DNA from: a virus
Lineage: Duplodnaviria; Caudoviricetes
IMG/VR virus record: IMGVR_UViG_3300021255_005861
Span: 96,001 to 160,000 of that record
Strand: one strand, 5' to 3'
DNA length: 64,000 nucleotides
Shown: positions 2,062 through 56,601 of the stretch, one piece after another
Layout of the letters: the number at the start of each line of letters is the position of its first letter
Numbering within the stretch: the first letter of the stretch is position 1
The notes under the pieces: generated by a model
What the model saw: only the letters and a program-made list of their open reading frames with translations
Database searches by the model: none
What the model was told of the DNA's origin: nothing
Translations under genes and position numbers: made by a program

Positions 2062-3900
2062 ATGTCTACGAGAGAACGGGTACTGCAACGGGTGCGGGAA
2101 CTACGAGCCCAGCATTTCCACCCGTCGCGCCTTACTGACGGCGACCGATTCCTGTTGGAGCGCCTAACTACACTGCATGGCTACCGCACCTTCTACACGG
2201 GAACCCCGCAGGGCGAACTCTTCATACACTGGTTCTACCGCGACCGCTCCGAGGACCGCCTGTCCCGCTGCGAGATATTTCACTTGAACATGCTCCGCTA
2301 CTTCAACGTGATGGACAAGGTGGAAGCCATACATATCCGTTGTGCAACGACACAGGGAAAGACCCGCGCGATGGAGCAGGCGATATCTATTATCTCCGAG
2401 GGTCACGCGTCCGTGGACTTCCAGTTAGTGACGCCCAAGCGCTCGTGGGAACACGACACCTTCAAGGAGTGCGTCGAGTACGCCGTGTCCTCGGGCAAGT
2501 TCGTATACTACATCCACTTCAAAGGCGCCTCCCGCATTTCTGATCCAACCCTGGGCATACCCGGCAGGATACTGAACCACTGCTCCGAACTGGACCTGCT
2601 CTATTGGAACTACCTCATGTACCTTGCGATGTTCAACGCCCCCGACGGCGTGAAGGCCATAGGCCCGCTCCTGCACAAGGGAATGAACAAGACGTACAAG
2701 AACAGGGACAAGTCGTGGTCGCAACTGTGCACGGGGGCTCAGGTGTTCCACTACTCAGGCAGTTTCCAGGCCTTCTCCGGCAACTACATCCGCGAGTGCC
2801 TCTCCGCATGCGGTATGGCAGACCGTCCTGTAAGGGACGCCAGGCTGTGGGTCAACGACCCGTATACGGTAGAGATGTTTCTCAGCCTCGTAGCCTTGCG
2901 GAAGGACGTGTATTCGCTAGACGTCCCCTATACGGCCACCAACGGGATATACGCCTGTTACACGAAACACAAGATTCCGAAGTATGAGGCGGCGTTTAAA
3001 AAATTATTTGCAAGTATTTGTATTGCTAATTGGTCTTATAAGAATATTGGTGGAACTGAAACGTTTAACTATGCTTTGGCAACGGCCTTAAAACAATTAG
3101 GGTATTTCGTTTGTTATTATTCGCCTAATATGGGTGTTGACGGGCTTACAGAAAAGGAATTGGTTGCCGCGGGTATTACCCCTTATAGGGGCGAACCGCT
3201 TCTTTGTTGCTTTGCTAATCAAAATGTCGGTGTGCATTTTTTGGGGAAATGCCCTGTTATACAGACGTGTCATTCTGCAATAATAGGCCCCGAACGGCCT
3301 ATTCGTAATATGAATGCTTACGTATCTATTACGGAAGAAGTTTCGGACTACTTGGATAAACTTGGATATAAGTCTGTACAGATTAGAAACGGTGTTGATT
3401 TGGAGCGGTTTAATTCCCGGAAACCTTTGCGTGCTATACCCCGAGTTCTTTCTATTTGTCAAGGCGATGACGCTTTATTGCAGGAAGCCTGTTCTCGTTT
3501 GGGGTGGTCTTTCGTGAATGTTCCAAAATCTTCGGATGCTCGTATATGGCACATAGAGGATTTGATAAACGACGCTGATATCGTTGTAGGCATAGGACGC
3601 TCGCTCTACGATGCCATGGCGTGCGGACGTGTTTGTATTTCGTGGGATAACCGTCCGCTGAACCCGTATACGGGTTGCGGATACGTGACGGCTGAACGCT
3701 GGCATGACTACGCCCGCACGAACTTCACGGGGAGAGGATATCCGAGGATAGACACGGTAGATGGGCTTATACGAGAGTTATGTAAGTACCGCCCCGCGGA
3801 CGGGGTTACGATGCGGGTATTCGCCGAGCGGGAGCTGGACATGCGCAGGAACGTGCTGAAGTACTTGGCGTTGGCCGGGATAGAAATAAGCAAAAAGTAA
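2062..3900 (+). CDS. Two-domain protein with C-terminal GT-B (GT4-like) glycosyltransferase
   Basis: GGTETF, NGVDLERF and DIVVGIGRSLYDAMACG motifs; N-terminal YIHFKG...FHYSGSF domain. Confidence 0.7.
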   Translation: MSTRERVLQRVRELRAQHFHPSRLTDGDRFLLERLTTLHGYRTFYTGTPQGELFIHWFYRDRSEDRLSRCEIFHLNMLRYFNVMDKVEAIHIRCATTQGKTRAMEQAISIISEGHASVDFQLVTPKRSWEHDTFKECVEYAVSSGKFVYYIHFKGASRISDPTLGIPGRILNHCSELDLLYWNYLMYLAMFNAPDGVKAIGPLLHKGMNKTYKNRDKSWSQLCTGAQVFHYSGSFQAFSGNYIRECLSACGMADRPVRDARLWVNDPYTVEMFLSLVALRKDVYSLDVPYTATNGIYACYTKHKIPKYEAAFKKLFASICIANWSYKNIGGTETFNYALATALKQLGYFVCYYSPNMGVDGLTEKELVAAGITPYRGEPLLCCFANQNVGVHFLGKCPVIQTCHSAIIGPERPIRNMNAYVSITEEVSDYLDKLGYKSVQIRNGVDLERFNSRKPLRAIPRVLSICQGDDALLQEACSRLGWSFVNVPKSSDARIWHIEDLINDADIVVGIGRSLYDAMACGRVCISWDNRPLNPYTGCGYVTAERWHDYARTNFTGRGYPRIDTVDGLIRELCKYRPADGVTMRVFAERELDMRRNVLKYLALAGIEISKK

Positions 3901-3957
3901 GTTTACTCTTGTTCTTACAAAATGTATATTTAAGGTAAGAAAAATAGGAGTTAGATT

Positions 3958-4407
3958 ATGCCTTTGAAGATTAAGGTACATAGAACTAATGAGGATTTCG
4001 TCTGCGAGATGGCGAACAAATGGCAGGAGGAAACCGGCCTGCCCATGAACATCTGGATAGACGAGTCCCAGTGGTACCTGCAGGGAGGGCACTCCAAGCG
4101 CCTCAAGTTCCAGCTAGATACATCCGATCGCCTAAAGAAGGACGAACTTGGCGAGATGGACATGGACGGTAACATATGGCCTAAGAAACTCAAGACTCCG
4201 AACCTGCGGGAGAAGGATCTTTCGCAACTGCGGAACTTTGTACACAATAACCGCTACGCCCTCGAGTACGTGGCGGACATGGACGTACGACTTTACCAGA
4301 TTTGGAATGACCTCATCAAGGGTGGCAAGCGTGCAACGGACGAGCAGATAGCGGAACTGAACCGTAAGGTGGACGCCGTGCTAGCGAAGAACAGGAGGAA
4401 GAAATGA
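3958..4407 (+). CDS. DUF4160-like protein with KIKV leader, putative internal head protein
   Basis: EMAN..TGLPMNIWID..H..RLKF; paralog of the next gene. Confidence 0.5.
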   Translation: MPLKIKVHRTNEDFVCEMANKWQEETGLPMNIWIDESQWYLQGGHSKRLKFQLDTSDRLKKDELGEMDMDGNIWPKKLKTPNLREKDLSQLRNFVHNNRYALEYVADMDVRLYQIWNDLIKGGKRATDEQIAELNRKVDAVLAKNRRKK

Positions 4408-16836: not shown

Positions 16837-17070
16837 ATGATTTATCGGAAGGAATTGTTTTCTTATGGGGCAGGTTTTCTCGGCTCGTGTACGCAGTATG
16901 TTGGTAAGGCGGGTAAGCATGAGATTGCCGGTATACTTGGTGTTTCCTCGGAATTATACATTTCCGAGGATGGTACTTTAAAGAGCAAGAGTACTATTCC
17001 GTTTGAATCCTTCCATGACAAGGACTTTGCTATCTTAGCCAAGTCCATCCGTGAACTGGAGGGCTTATGA
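16837..17070 (+). CDS. Hypothetical protein (start codon lies in the IS end)
   Basis: ORF track only. Confidence 0.35.
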   Translation: MIYRKELFSYGAGFLGSCTQYVGKAGKHEIAGILGVSSELYISEDGTLKSKSTIPFESFHDKDFAILAKSIRELEGL

Positions 17071-17169
17071 TTCGTACCGTGCTCGACCTCGCCATTGATA
17101 TCGCCTTCGTGGGGGCGCTCCTCTGCGGTACCGCCCTTATCTATGTATTTTCAAACTAGGAGAACCTTT

Positions 17170-17337
17170 ATGCAGTTCAAACTACGTAAGGCCTCGGACT
17201 ATTTTATGGATAATCAAGAGGATGTGGATGTCTCTACGTTAGAGGATTTGCAGGAACTCTGCTTGCGCTACGACAAGGAACTTATCGTGGATTTTCGGGA
17301 TAACACTATTGTGGTGTACGATTCTTATATTGAGTAG
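17170..17337 (+). CDS. Small hypothetical protein
   Basis: RBS AGGAG; MQFKLRKASD...IVVYDSYIE. Confidence 0.65.
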   Translation: MQFKLRKASDYFMDNQEDVDVSTLEDLQELCLRYDKELIVDFRDNTIVVYDSYIE

Positions 17338-17347
17338 GTAGGCGATT

Positions 17348-17764
17348 ATGAAAAATATGGAAAAGAAAATCAAGGAAAGTCCCTTGCTGAAAGATTTGAT
17401 GTTCAGCGGAGATGATTTAGATGCAATTCGCAATGTTGTTCTGGAGGCAATTTGCAAGTACCATAATTTAGTAGATACCGACCGCTTGATAAATAATCAA
17501 GCGGAAATGCGATATGTATATCATGCCTGGGAACGTACGGATGAACTAGAAACTAAATTATACTATTGTACTATGCAGGACGCATCTGAAGATTATATTG
17601 GTACAACTCATGGTGTAGAGGCAACATTACGGCGACCGCAGACAATAATCTACACGCATGCATATACCGTAATCACTCCGGTAGACGTCATTGAAAGATA
17701 TATACAAAAGGACTATCGTATAGATACATCTATGCACTTTAAACTTTATAAAAGGTTTGAATAA
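17348..17764 (+). CDS. Hypothetical protein (AT-rich)
   Basis: ORF track. Confidence 0.55.
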   Translation: MKNMEKKIKESPLLKDLMFSGDDLDAIRNVVLEAICKYHNLVDTDRLINNQAEMRYVYHAWERTDELETKLYYCTMQDASEDYIGTTHGVEATLRRPQTIIYTHAYTVITPVDVIERYIQKDYRIDTSMHFKLYKRFE

Positions 17765-17779
17765 TTTTCATTTTCTCTC

Positions 17780-17808
17780 TTGACGGAAACCTTTTTATAT
17801 TATATATT
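17780..17808 (+). promoter_or_regulatory. Sigma70-type promoter for the tRNA cluster
   Basis: TTGACG-N17-TATATT. Confidence 0.7.
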
Positions 17809-17833
17809 TGAATCTGAAAAGGAAAAACTCTCT

Positions 17834-17917
17834 ATGCTGAAGACAAACGCAAATAAAAATTTCTTCCGTGCCACGGCCAGTTTCGTGGGCGGTTCTGCGA
17901 ATATCCAGCGGTGGTAG
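17834..17917 (+). CDS. Leader peptide MLKTNANKNFFRATASFVGGSANIQRW
   Basis: AAGGA RBS; 27 codons; 3' end overlaps the antiterminator strand. Confidence 0.65.
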   Translation: MLKTNANKNFFRATASFVGGSANIQRW

Positions 17918-17974
17918 AGTTTTTCCAAGTGCTTAACGAGAATAGCCCCCCGCTGGAACAAGCGGGGCCTTTTT
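17904..17974 (+). terminator. Attenuator: antiterminator and intrinsic terminator
   Basis: tccagcgg (17904-11) pairs with ccgctgga (17950-57), exclusive with the ccccgct/agcgggg stem followed by T5. Confidence 0.7.
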
Positions 17975-17981
17975 CGTATAT

Positions 17982-18054
17982 GCCAAGGCATCCTATCGTG
18001 GGAAAGGACGGGACTGAAAATCTCAGAAACCCGGTTCAACTCCGGGACTTGGCA
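17982..18054 (+). tRNA. tRNA-Phe(GAA), several stem mismatches
   Basis: Cloverleaf, loop CTGAAAA, T-arm cccgg-TTCAACT-ccggg. Confidence 0.75.
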
Positions 18055-18063
18055 CGAACATAT

Positions 18064-18137
18064 CGGCGTGTGGCGCAACTGGATAGCGCAGCGGACCTTT
18101 AATCCGCGGGGTCTAGGTTCAAGTCCTGGTACGCCGA
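18064..18137 (+). tRNA. tRNA-Lys(TTT) with C33
   Basis: gcgga-CCTTTAA-tccgc anticodon arm; full cloverleaf. Confidence 0.8.
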
Positions 18138-18142
18138 CTCTT

Positions 18143-18215
18143 GGGACGGTAGCTCAGTTGGTAGAGCGCCTGCCTTGCAAGCAGGGGGTTGTCGGTTCGA
18201 TCCCGACCCGCTCCA
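18143..18215 (+). tRNA. tRNA-Ala(TGC)
   Basis: cctgc-CTTGCAA-gcagg; G3:U70 pair. Confidence 0.92.
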
Positions 18216-18244
18216 TACAATATTTTAGGAATGTTAGCATCGTG

Positions 18245-19625
18245 GTCAACTACTCACCGCCTAAAGGCGGTGAGCTTGTAATGCCCCAGATGTTTCCATA
18301 GGGGACTTACAGTACGATCGGGTGGTTGACTCACACCCTGCCCTCCAGGTTTGCAATGCTCCATCAAGGGGCATCTTGAACGAGAAGGGATGTTTGCTCT
18401 TCCGAGCGATGTTGATTGCCGCATTCCAATCCGAATCAAGGATGGTACCGTTCTTGCAATAGAACCTTCGGTTCTTGCGAGTACCTTCCTTTTTGCCAGT
18501 GGTGCAGTCAATCTGGCTTGTCATGAATGGGGAAACTGTTTCTACCCGCTTGCCCGCGAGTAGTGCCTTGTATGACAGGATTTGTTTTAACTTATAGAAC
18601 GGCACCTGGGAAATCCTACGGTTGTGGCCCTTCCTCTTCTTGCCGTCCTTGGTCTTTGAAGTTTTCTGCTTTATTTTTGACAGGTCTTCGAGCACGATGA
18701 TGCTTGCGTCGGTACTGTGTATGATGGCGTTCGCTACTCGGCAGCACATGTCATCGGACTGCCGTTGCTCCTTCTTGCATAGCTTGTGCCTATGCCTGTG
18801 TGCACTCTTCGTGCCCTTCTTCTGTAGACTACTCTTCAAGTAACGAATCTTTCTGCGTCTAGCGTTATATTCCTTGTCGTTGAGCATCAACCCGTCAGAA
18901 GTTATCACAAAACGGCGCTCGCCCAGGTCAACGCCTATGCAAGTTTCGTCCTTCAAAGGTACTTCCGGAACCTCAAACGACAGTGCGAGGAAGAACCTAT
19001 CATCATGCTTAAATATCAGCGGATCATGCACGGGATACTTTCCGAACATCTCTTCCAGCTTCGGGTACTTGACTATATCGGCATCTACCCGCTTTCCTGG
19101 ATTGGCCGAGCATAATGAAATCGAAGATAAACTTAACCTGGAATACAGACGCTTGTCAAGACGCATCGAAAGGTTCTTCTTCGTAGGCACCTTGTGCTCG
19201 ACATGACCGTTGCTGTTGATTGAACGGAACGCCGATATGCAATCCTTGTATATCTTGATTATTCCCTGCGACGGTATCGTCGGAAACTTCTTGCGTAATT
19301 CGTAGTACACTGCGTTGTGTACAGACTGCAAGTCCAGGTGTACCTTACGGGTGGTTATGATGTTAGCACATTCGTTGTACGCAAGTCGAGATACTTCAAG
19401 AAGACTCGTCCAGTATTCCTGGCCGGCAATATCCTTGAATTTTAGCTCGGCATTGTATGTTATTGTACTCATCTATACTTCACCCGTGTTCACCTATAAG
19501 TTTAGATAATTTCAGTTACAAAAACAAGCAATTTCCGCATTATAACAAAATAAAGCGTTCCCAAAATGTTCTCGCAAGCATTCCTATGCCGCCCTAAAGG
19601 GACGGCATCTTCCTGCCAACTTTTT
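18245..19625 (-). mobile_element. IS200/IS605-family (IS1341-like) tnpB-only element
   Basis: CTTTAG-loop hairpins at both ends; right end ...gtagttgac; TTCAC precedes the left end. Confidence 0.85.
18261..19472 (-). CDS. tnpB: TnpB RNA-guided nuclease
   Basis: GVDLGE, IVLEDL, DSDWNAAINI. Confidence 0.9.
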   Translation of the reverse strand: MSTITYNAELKFKDIAGQEYWTSLLEVSRLAYNECANIITTRKVHLDLQSVHNAVYYELRKKFPTIPSQGIIKIYKDCISAFRSINSNGHVEHKVPTKKNLSMRLDKRLYSRLSLSSISLCSANPGKRVDADIVKYPKLEEMFGKYPVHDPLIFKHDDRFFLALSFEVPEVPLKDETCIGVDLGERRFVITSDGLMLNDKEYNARRRKIRYLKSSLQKKGTKSAHRHRHKLCKKEQRQSDDMCCRVANAIIHSTDASIIVLEDLSKIKQKTSKTKDGKKRKGHNRRISQVPFYKLKQILSYKALLAGKRVETVSPFMTSQIDCTTGKKEGTRKNRRFYCKNGTILDSDWNAAINIARKSKHPFSFKMPLDGALQTWRAGCESTTRSYCKSPMETSGALQAHRL

Positions 19626-19691
19626 GTGAACTGCACATATCTCCATGGTATGTGTGAGGCGGGTCCGACTCCCGCACTTTCCCCGAAACAT

Positions 19692-19764
19692 TGGATAGTA
19701 GCTCAATGGTAGAGCGTCCCGCTGTTAACGGGAGGGTTGTAGGTTCGAGTCCCTTCTTCTCCGC
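19692..19764 (+). tRNA. tRNA-Asn(GTT), imperfect T and acceptor stems
   Basis: tcccg-CTGTTAA-cggga; canonical D-arm. Confidence 0.8.
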
Positions 19765-19769
19765 TAGAT

Positions 19770-19843
19770 GCGGCTATAGCACAGCCTGGTCAGTGTGCCG
19801 GTTTGCCATATCGGAGACTCGGGTTCAAGTCCGGTCGTCCGCT
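19770..19843 (+). tRNA. tRNA-Gly(GCC), imperfect stems
   Basis: ccggt-TTGCCAT-atcgg; U73. Confidence 0.75.
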
Positions 19844-20062
19844 CTATTTGAGTTGCTTTATGGAGAGGTCCTCACCCCAGATATCCGTGACGCTCGCCCC
19901 GTAGACGCGGACGAACTTCCTGCCGTCGTAGGCCTTCATCCATTGCCACGAGCGGGCGTCGGGAATCGTAAGTGTGTAGCAGTTGTCCCCGCGGCAGACC
20001 TCGAAGGACAGGGCAGATGCGGTGACGGCAAGCAGTAGGACGGACAGTGCGATGGCTTTCAT
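19844..20062 (-). CDS. Small secreted protein
   Basis: Signal peptide MKAIALSVLLLAVTASA; RBS AAGGAG. Confidence 0.65.
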   Translation of the reverse strand: MKAIALSVLLLAVTASALSFEVCRGDNCYTLTIPDARSWQWMKAYDGRKFVRVYGASVTDIWGEDLSIKQLK

Positions 20063-20165: not shown

Positions 20166-20267
20166 ATGCTGAAGATACACGTGAACGAGCAGAAGATTGA
20201 AGATGTGGCTGGACGACAAGTCAGCATCGGATCCCCGCAGTACCAACAGGGAGGCCTGCAATCTTGA
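20166..20267 (+). pseudogene. Short ORF or remnant carrying the KIHVNE leader
   Basis: RBS GAGG; MLKIHVNEQKIED...; probably an internally deleted gene. Confidence 0.4.
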
Positions 20268-20299
20268 GTGGCGCAGGCTCCACGGATAAGGATTTAGAA

Positions 20300-21502
20300 A
20301 TGATTGAAATTCAAGGAAAATACAATACCGCCAAGGTATATACCGACAATATCGAGGAGGCAGCCTATAAGCAAATCCTCAACTTGATGAACCAGAAGTT
20401 CGCCGAGGGTTCACATTTCGCCATTATGCCCGACTGCCATGCCGGGGTCGGCTGCGTCATCGGGCTTACCATGAAAATCGTAGACCGTGTCGTACCGAAC
20501 CTGGTCGGTGTGGATATCGGGTGTTCTATGCTCGTGCTCAAGGTAGACAAGTCCTTCCACTTCGACCTTCCGAAAGTGGACAAGGTGTGGCACCAGTGCA
20601 TCCCGTCGGGAATGAACCATAATGTAAAGAAGCACCGGTTTGCCGACCGCGTAAACCTCGAGGACATGATAGCCCCGGTGAACGTGGACAAGCTGAAATT
20701 GTCCATTGGGACTCTCGGTGGGGGTAACCACTTCGGCGAAATCAACGAGGACGACGAGGGCAACCACTATATCGTAATCCACTCCGGGTCGCGCCACCTC
20801 GGTATCGAGGTGTGCCGGTACTACCAGGACTTGGCAATCAAGTACCACCGCAATGACCGCACGGCAATGCAGGATGCCATCAAGCGCCTGAAGCAGGCTG
20901 GTCGCGAGTATGAGATCGAGGACACCCTGCAACGTATGAGCGCGGAGCGTACACCTGTACCGAACGAACTCGCTTACCTGGAAGGTGCACTTATGCAGGA
21001 CTACCTTCACGACATGCGGATAGCGCAGGATTTTGCTATGTGGAACCGCGAGGCGATGATGGACGTCCTTGTGTCCGAACTGGGAATCAAGAAGCGTCAT
21101 ATCCAGGACAAGTTCTGTACGATGCACAACTACATAGATTTGGATAACATGGTTCTCCGCAAGGGCGCCATATCCCTGCAAAAGGACGAGGTCGCCCTAA
21201 TCCCTATGAATATGCGGGACGGCTCTCTAATCGTCAAGGGAAAGGGTAACCCGGAGTGGAACTGCTCGGGTCCGCACGGGGCTGGGCGACTCATGTCCCG
21301 CTCGAAGGCGAAGGAATCGTTGAAAATGGAGGACTTCAAGGCTGCCATGTCCGGCATCTACACTACTTGCGTGAGCTCCTCCACTATAGACGAGTCCCCG
21401 ATGGCCTACAAGCCGATGGACGAGATAGTGGCGAACATCCAGGACACCGCCGAGGTTATCAAGGTCATCAAGCCTATCTACAACTTCAAGGCCTCCGAAT
21501 GA
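20300..21502 (+). CDS. rtcB: RtcB RNA ligase
   Basis: MPDCHAG, GVDIGC, GTLGGGNHF, HSGSR, HNY, RKGA, HGAGR, DESPMAYK. Confidence 0.95.
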   Translation: MIEIQGKYNTAKVYTDNIEEAAYKQILNLMNQKFAEGSHFAIMPDCHAGVGCVIGLTMKIVDRVVPNLVGVDIGCSMLVLKVDKSFHFDLPKVDKVWHQCIPSGMNHNVKKHRFADRVNLEDMIAPVNVDKLKLSIGTLGGGNHFGEINEDDEGNHYIVIHSGSRHLGIEVCRYYQDLAIKYHRNDRTAMQDAIKRLKQAGREYEIEDTLQRMSAERTPVPNELAYLEGALMQDYLHDMRIAQDFAMWNREAMMDVLVSELGIKKRHIQDKFCTMHNYIDLDNMVLRKGAISLQKDEVALIPMNMRDGSLIVKGKGNPEWNCSGPHGAGRLMSRSKAKESLKMEDFKAAMSGIYTTCVSSSTIDESPMAYKPMDEIVANIQDTAEVIKVIKPIYNFKASE

Positions 21503-56410: not shown

Positions 56411-56483
56411 GGCCCCTTCGTATAGTTGGTCAGTACACCAGACCCTCAATTTGGAAAGAGCGGTTCAAGTCCGCTAGGGGCTA
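56411..56483 (+). tRNA. tRNA-Glu(CTC) with C33
   Basis: ccaga-CCCTCAA-tttgg; good acceptor and T stems. Confidence 0.82.
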
Positions 56484-56491
56484 TTACTAAT

Positions 56492-56573
56492 AGGAGCACT
56501 ACCTTGGGCGTGACTCATAACCACGGCTGTAAATCCAGGGCGGTACAGAGAGGTTCGACTCCTCGTGCTCCTA
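56492..56573 (+). tRNA. Atypical tRNA-like RNA (CAT loop, no normal D-arm, long extra arm)
   Basis: aggagcac/gtgctcct stem, gagg-TTCGACT-cctc, cgtga-CTCATAA-ccacg. Confidence 0.55.
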
Positions 56574-56601
56574 TTACCACTTTTTTTGAAGGACTCCTCC
56601 C

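Follow-up and report, generated by a model that had tools for sequence, protein, structure and literature searches.

The tRNA gene cluster of a rumen phage is preceded by a leader that we interpret, with moderate confidence, as a ribosome-mediated (leader-peptide) transcription attenuator, one that would gate the phage tRNA operon by the speed at which cognate codons are decoded. What is observed is the set of leader parts and how far relatives keep them, together with the competing pairings and a bias in codon choice; from these we infer the coupling, the codons at which ribosomes would stall as sensors and the physiological trigger.

The window analysed here is a stretch of 64,000 nt (bases 96001 to 160000) of a 185,666-bp IMG/VR virus record that is classed as a provirus. 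Bovine gut metagenomes make up most of the sequencing runs that contain window DNA. Upstream of the leader is a gene for a 138-aa protein without assigned function (17348-17764), and downstream of it is the tRNA cluster. The gene of an RtcB RNA ligase (20264-21502, plus strand; 412 aa; Pfam PF01139, E = 9e-60) adjoins the cluster and is given as context only; its counterpart in the related contig L016 (7830-10010) was called at 726 aa and may carry an intein or a fusion. Relatives of the TnpB protein encoded within the cluster (see below) were sought in bacterial genomes in order to infer the host, and none were found. When one metatranscriptome run was mapped to the region, coverage was confined to pieces from around tRNA-Ala, most of which continued into unrelated sequence.

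The promoter, SD sequence, 27-codon ORF and terminator that a first-pass annotation of the bare sequence had described were all located, by reading and with prediction tools, on the plus strand. A sigma-70-type promoter (17780-17808) consists of the −35 hexamer TTGACG (17780-17785), a 17-nt spacer and the −10 hexamer TATATT (17803-17808). It is followed by the SD-like purine tract AAGGAAAA (17819-17826, read directly), which has AAGGA at 17819-17823. Use of SD sequences is typical of this phage, SD-like motifs being present upstream of 95 of its 157 long ORFs as against 33 in a control window. The leader ORF (17834-17917 including the stop) comprises 27 sense codons, from the ATG at 17834 to the TAG at 17915-17917. 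The intrinsic terminator (17948-17974) has a 7-bp GC stem (17948-17954 with 17961-17967; 8 bp in most relatives), a 6-nt loop and a T5 run at 17970-17974, so that its U-tract is short (4-5 U). The gap between the T-run and the first tRNA gene, tRNA-Phe at 17982, is 7 nt. No other promoter can fit before the tRNAs, because these 7 nt are all that lies between the terminator and tRNA-Phe, and all transcription entering the cluster must, to judge from this layout, pass the leader. The complementarity that had been claimed between the tail of the ORF and the terminator arm also exists: TCCAGCGG (17904-17911) pairs with CCGCTGGA (17950-17957) over 8 bp.

Related loci were reached in several ways. 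The upstream 138-aa protein has six relatives of 87-94% identity in a large protein collection and none among the viral contigs. The leader is present in the contigs that encode these relatives (L016-L023), in the metagenome contig L024 and in a 62-kb contig of a public run; nine related loci keep it, eight of them at full length, the contig L020 ending within the ORF. L024 was the one further locus given by an exact-pattern scan of metagenomes, and the same kind of scan of viral contigs did not find the leader. When positions 17300-18260 were compared with the phage collection in a DNA search for distant similarity, the matches were all to tRNAs. RtcB led to 14 viral loci; none of these has a homologue of the leader, and in most of them the neighbourhood is free of tRNAs.

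Among these relatives, the ORF is open over its 27 codons in eight of the eight full-length copies, and the consensus fold of six keeps the long stem described below; loss of the ORF, which the first-pass annotation had named as evidence against its reading, was not seen. The promoter hexamers are invariant in the nine loci, the spacer and the first transcribed bases are variable, and the SD marks the exact point from which the sequence is conserved again. Codons 2-10 are for the most part unpaired in the consensus fold; variation there affects six of the nine third positions as against one of the 18 first and second positions (Fisher p = 0.0017). Among the variable third-position columns, five contain synonymous changes only, and the sixth changes Lys to Asn. 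Such a substitution pattern looks like that expected of a translated sensor, codon-level constraint being the sole indication of translation. In codons 11-27, none of the 17 third positions is variable, compared with 21% in the neighbouring gene, and this invariance fits an added constraint from RNA structure. The relatives are too close to one another to show much covariation; the one compensatory change is in the terminator stem of L021, which has U-A in place of a C-G pair. The promoter spacer, the 5' end and tRNA-Phe change and the leader stays, so the leader appears to be kept while the cargo changes.

Downstream of the terminator, the plus strand carries a weak copy of tRNA-Phe(GAA) (17982-18055; 27.5 bits in Rfam, where the threshold is 29, and an ARAGORN call at relaxed settings only), tRNA-Lys(UUU) with C33 in its anticodon loop (18064-18138), tRNA-Ala(UGC) (18142-18216), a split tRNA-Trp(CCA) (18228-19684), tRNA-Asn(GUU) (19692-19764; 45.9 bits) and tRNA-Gly(GCC) (19770-19844; 35.4 bits, compared with 65.4 in L016). 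The Lys, Ala, Asn and Gly genes were called by both ARAGORN and Rfam, the last two with mismatched stems. The tRNA-Trp was called by ARAGORN only after in-silico deletion of ~18246-19625, which is a tnpA-less TnpB element on the minus strand (tnpB at 18261-19472, with Pfam TnpB domains); the same insertion in tRNA-Trp is present in L024. The Asn and Gly mismatches sit in the acceptor and T stems (19692-19844 compared with L016 6874-7202). From 19742, the window aligns with L016 sequence that begins within tRNA-Ser (from 7100), and the tRNA-Asn of the window and this tRNA-Ser are similar at their 3' ends. In the relatives, the tRNA-Phe slot is filled by a higher-quality copy or by a Phe allele that is not homologous: two tRNA-Phe(GAA) alleles that are ~54% identical share the slot behind the leader (window 17982-18055; L016 6633-6706), and the L016-type allele has an unusual T-loop. 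The tRNA set of L016 is Phe, Lys, Ala, Asn, Thr(CGU), Ser(GCU) and Gly; that of L022 and L023, and of L021 as far as its contig reaches, is Phe, Ala, Arg(ACG), Asn, Thr, Ser and Gly.

The leader codons match these tRNAs. It had been claimed that 16 codons specify Phe, Lys, Ala, Trp, Asn or Gly, exactly the amino acids of six downstream tRNAs. The codon count stands (16 of 26, leaving out the start codon); the six tRNAs do not, as tRNA-Phe scores below threshold and tRNA-Trp is split. The 26 codons after the start were scored against a codon background taken from crude long ORFs of the phage itself. The five called tRNAs read 15 of these 26 codons, compared with 26.3% in the background, and the binomial test against the phage background that had been proposed with the claim gives p = 7e-4. 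Windows of 26 codons in phage genes equal the leader in 0.33% of cases, or in 0.14% if all five species are required. Matched to their own tRNA sets, the leaders of L016 and L022 reach 16/26 and 17/26, with empirical p values from 4e-4 to 5e-3 and backgrounds of 0.26-0.30 across the loci. Several of the matched codons (GCC) need relaxed wobble. Under strict Ala decoding, in which GCC is not read, two codons are lost and the window scores 13/26 (p between 3e-3 and 5e-3); across the loci, p then lies mostly between 5e-5 and 7e-3, L023 being the weakest at up to 0.04.

The amino acids that the L016-type leader uses at least twice are Ala, Phe, Ser, Asn, Lys, Gly, Thr and Arg, and these eight are exactly the tRNA specificities found across the clusters of the relatives. 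The first-pass annotation had also asked whether leader codons follow tRNA content from one relative to the next; they do so loosely. Some substitutions agree: codon 3 is Asn in two of the three clusters without tRNA-Lys, and the window, which is without tRNA-Ser, has Asn where other leaders have Ser. Other cases do not: AAA persists in the leaders of clusters without tRNA-Lys and CGT in those without tRNA-Arg, and L023 has a tRNA-Arg, yet its leader codon is TGT.

Folding of the leader (17816-17980) gave −60 kcal/mol, with z = −4.2 against shuffles. The fold contains a 20-bp stem that the first-pass annotation had missed, in which 17821-17839, comprising the SD, the AUG and codon 2, pairs with 17906-17926, comprising the last codons and the stop; it appears in the minimum free energy fold and in the consensus fold of the six relatives. 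With this stem present, the leader has the classical four-segment layout (1:2, 2:3 and 3:4). Segment 1 is the 5' arm of the long stem (17821-17839). Segment 2, the last codons and the stop (17904-17926), can pair either with segment 1 through 17906-17926 or with segment 3 through 17904-17914. Segment 3 is the 5' arm and loop of the terminator (17947-17957), which the predicted pair list gives as the antiterminator partner, and segment 4 is the terminator 3' arm. The 2:3 pairing has 8+2 bp (17904-17911 with 17950-17957, and 17913-17914 with 17948-17949), and in the predicted antiterminator fold, segment 4 is held by 17893-17898. In these models, the 1:2, 2:3 and 3:4 helices are genuine competing structures. 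A further 10-bp hairpin lies within the ORF (17866-17892; columns 51-77 of the consensus fold) and is a candidate pause hairpin. It is near-invariant in the relatives, the sole change being C to U at 17867 in L023, which keeps the pair as U-G.

The layout suggests the following mechanism. Transcription would start at ~17815 from a host-type promoter and yield a 165-nt leader that is parted from the first tRNA by the terminator alone. In untranslated RNA, 1:2 and 3:4 would form and transcription would terminate. A ribosome that reaches the stop codon would cover segment 2, 3:4 would form, and the outcome would again be termination. If ribosomes were slowed at codons 3-20, segment 1 would be occupied by a stalled or queued ribosome and segment 2 would be free; it could then pair with segment 3, the terminator would be blocked, and the tRNA genes would be transcribed. 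Phe, Lys, Ala, Asn and Gly tRNAs would thus be made on demand, as would Thr, Ser and Arg tRNAs in the relatives. The 1:2 stem would probably also silence translation of the released leader. The distribution of the codon match is informative here. Between 13 and 15 of the 18 codons from 3 to 20 are matched, compared with one or two of the seven codons from 21 to 27. Codons after 20 could not be sensors, because a 28-nt ribosome footprint first covers segment 2 at codon 21. The matched codons end where the footprint would start to cover segment 2, as the attenuator model predicts.

Constraint folding agreed with this mechanism in part. The transcript was folded to the end of the terminator stem as a nested structure at equilibrium, with the 28-nt footprint forced single-stranded. 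The terminator probability was 0.99 for RNA free of ribosomes, for RNA with a ribosome at the stop and for RNA carrying one ribosome whose A site is at any of codons 5-27. Placing the A site at codons 2-4 made the antiterminator prevail and lowered this probability to 0.01-0.03 (window) or 0.12-0.47 (L016). With a second ribosome on the start site, antitermination was obtained when the lead ribosome was at codon 11 or at codons 15-17 (window) or at codon 17 (L016). A single stall at codons 5-20 leaves the terminator in place because the 1:2 stem re-forms. Of the two-state switch proposed in the first-pass annotation, which overlooked the stem that sequesters the SD, the alternative pairings are supported, and antitermination by a stall anywhere in the ORF is not supported by nested folding. 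It follows from the nested folds that sensing at most of the matched codons would need kinetic trapping, with 2:3 made before segment 4, or ribosome queuing, or a pseudoknot in which the lower 1:2 stem coexists with 2:3, a structure outside the reach of nested folding.

The same arrangement recurs in an unrelated sequence context. G001, a complete 386-kb phage with 46 tRNAs, was reached through an RtcB that is 57% identical, and comparison with the window leader showed no sequence similarity. It has three tRNA blocks, each behind an SD-led ORF and a terminator located 11-14 nt before the first tRNA. All three leader ORFs lie on the minus strand and are rich in codons read by their own block: 21/32 in the first (L041:3301-3402; empirical p 4.5e-4; 24/32 at the amino-acid level), 26/44 in the second (L040:9091-9228; empirical p 1.2e-4; 39/44) and 22/34 in the third (L040:3961-4068; empirical p 8e-5; 22/34). 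In the predicted folds, 3/3 leaders have their SD region buried in a stem. When the terminator 3' arm is withheld, the stop-codon region, or in one leader the region just before the stop, pairs with the terminator 5' arm. The G001 leaders thus share with the window an SD-led ORF written in block codons, an antiterminator at the end of the ORF and a terminator near the first tRNA. They differ in that G001 is AT-rich and uses a different promoter motif, whereas the window leader is single, shorter and GC-richer. Since G001 presents the same wiring in a different sequence, it raised our confidence that the window leader is a working design and not a coincidence. A shared AT-rich motif, GTTAATAT ... 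TACTAATTA ... TATAAA, precedes each G001 leader (L041:3240-3540; L040:9025-9325 and 3883-4183; minus strand) and probably serves as a promoter specific to this phage. Gating does not extend to all phage tRNAs, as the tRNA-Glu at 56411 of the window and a tRNA-Met in L009 have a promoter and no leader. Just after this tRNA-Glu(CUC), positions 56490-56575 of the window are tRNA-like, with a 7-bp acceptor stem, a T arm and a long extra arm, and received no ARAGORN call.

Part of the evidence can be read differently. The leader might be the gene of a stand-alone sRNA or of a 27-residue micro-protein, the tRNAs being transcribed through leaky, unregulated read-through and the codon match being coincidental. 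Stable sRNAs typically show such a long 5'-3' stem with a terminator behind it, the invariant third positions of codons 11-27 point to constraint at the RNA level, the codon-match p for this single ORF is only ~1e-3, and overall the leader is no better conserved than the neighbouring gene (21 of 155 columns variable, as against 68 of 414). However, a separate tRNA promoter has no space in the 7 nt, the third-position pattern of codons 2-10 speaks for translation, and most amino-acid changes stay inside the tRNA-matched set. Segment 2 can pair with segment 1 as well as with the terminator arm, and the codon match and the wiring are repeated in the three unrelated G001 leaders; the leader also matches no Rfam family. 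We consider this explanation unlikely.

It is quite improbable that the leader is a switch or processing signal that works independently of translation, be it T-box-like, protein-binding or a Y-RNA-like partner of RtcB, and controls termination or the maturation of the tRNA precursor. Its strong conserved structure would suit such an element, the GGUGGU tract in segment 2 faintly recalls a T-box motif, and RtcB adjoins the tRNA cluster. Y-RNA-like RNAs accompany rtcB in some bacteria. Nevertheless, these readings leave the period-3 substitution pattern and the codon match unexplained. A search of the leader (17770-17990) against Rfam at E values up to 10 returned no T-box (RF00230), YrlA or other model, the weak YrlA matches falling on tRNA sequence, and no Rsr/TROVE gene was found in the 186-kb record. 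The former result speaks against a T-box riboswitch; the lack of a YrlA match on the leader and of a TROVE domain in the record speaks against a YrlA-type element.

A third explanation accepts the attenuator as ancestral and real in relatives such as L016 and regards the copy in the window genome as a decaying relic. The window has a U-U mismatch of its own in the 1:2 stem, an A-A mismatch in an inner helix and a terminator of 7 bp rather than 8; its tRNA-Trp is split by the TnpB element, and several of its tRNAs score poorly. Comparison with L024 points the same way, since over 2,887 aligned positions (16847-19733), all 19 differences fall in the leader and tRNA-Phe (17831-18038), and the flanking gene, tRNA-Lys, tRNA-Ala and the TnpB element show none. 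From the sequences, this cluster of differences would be a recombination patch or very local fast evolution; DGR-type mutagenesis was rejected, the changes not being adenine-specific. The window nonetheless keeps an intact ORF, promoter and both alternative pairings, and in constraint folding it switches more cleanly than L016; we consider a relic of this kind improbable. In milder form, the Asn/Gly end of the window suggests a rearranged, decaying cluster, and the attenuator device may be partly relict there. Because the operon of the window is damaged by the TnpB insertion and by weak tRNA copies, L016 is the better copy for experiments. A type I toxin mRNA with fold-back inhibition, which the 5'-3' stem had suggested, was dismissed on finding no long hydrophobic stretch in the peptide and no convincing antisense promoter.

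If the leader is an attenuator, the question arises of what it responds to. One tentative answer, which we regard as possible though on balance doubtful, is that it serves as a multi-codon 'checklist' sensor: host anticodon nucleases would deplete Lys, Asn, Phe and other tRNAs, ribosomes would stall in the leader, termination would be bypassed, and nuclease-resistant replacements, such as the tRNA-Lys with C33, would be produced, which together with RtcB would make an inducible replacement-and-repair module. Host tRNA cleavage by immunity as the trigger is conjecture on our part, the adjacent RtcB gene and the C33 of tRNA-Lys being circumstantial. U33 is near-universal in tRNA anticodon loops. 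The tRNA-Lys(UUU) of the window (18064-18138) and of L016 (6715-6789) has the loop CCUUUAA, with C33 in place of U33, and this replacement is in line with the proposed alteration of phage tRNA loops as an escape from anticodon nucleases. Homeostasis of tRNA supply and demand would account for the data equally well as the sensing of immunity.

Attenuators with leader peptides are well known from the amino-acid operons of enterobacteria, where trpL, hisL, pheL, thrL, leuL and ilvL are examples. Like the window leader, those of the trpL type have a short SD-led ORF after the promoter, enriched in regulatory codons, alternative 1:2, 2:3 and 3:4 helices, and an intrinsic terminator before the regulated genes, and sensing is multivalent in thrL and ilvL. 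In contrast, the window leader is viral, would regulate tRNAs rather than biosynthetic enzymes and would sense five to eight amino acids. Its segment 1 is the SD/AUG region itself and not a stretch of distal codons, so that the untranslated RNA would also shut off its own ribosome binding. In E. coli, the pheST attenuator with its pheM leader controls phenylalanyl-tRNA synthetase. It resembles the window leader in that attenuation acts on part of the machinery that decodes the sensed codon, and it differs in being chromosomal, in controlling a synthetase gene and in sensing a single amino acid. T-box elements likewise report tRNA status through terminator and antiterminator alternatives, but they bind the uncharged tRNA directly and have no ORF.

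Why phages carry tRNAs has been a question for more than 50 years (PMC10264068). Phage tRNAs can counter tRNA-cleaving defences, as the abstracts and searched passages of three papers describe (PMC10264068, PMC11464382, PMC11555353). Such systems have in common with the window a phage-borne tRNA set that contains a tRNA-Lys(UUU) with an altered anticodon loop and adjoins an RNA repair ligase; the papers treat what phage tRNAs do, and their abstracts and searched passages contain no conditional transcription switch (PMC10264068, PMC11464382, PMC11555353). A search of the full-text literature found no paper on attenuation or leader peptides before phage tRNA genes. Leader-peptide attenuation is a known kind of control, and its apparent use on phage tRNA genes is one for which no published account was found.

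The purpose of phage tRNAs has so far been argued from gene content and not from regulation. If the attenuator reading is true, phage tRNAs would be a conditional response to shortage, whether this arises from a mismatch in codon usage, from host shut-off or from a tRNA-cleaving defence, and the leader itself would spell out the shortages that the phage expects. Leader-peptide attenuation would extend from amino-acid supply to tRNA supply, and the leader would be a compact natural sensor of decoding speed at several codons at once.
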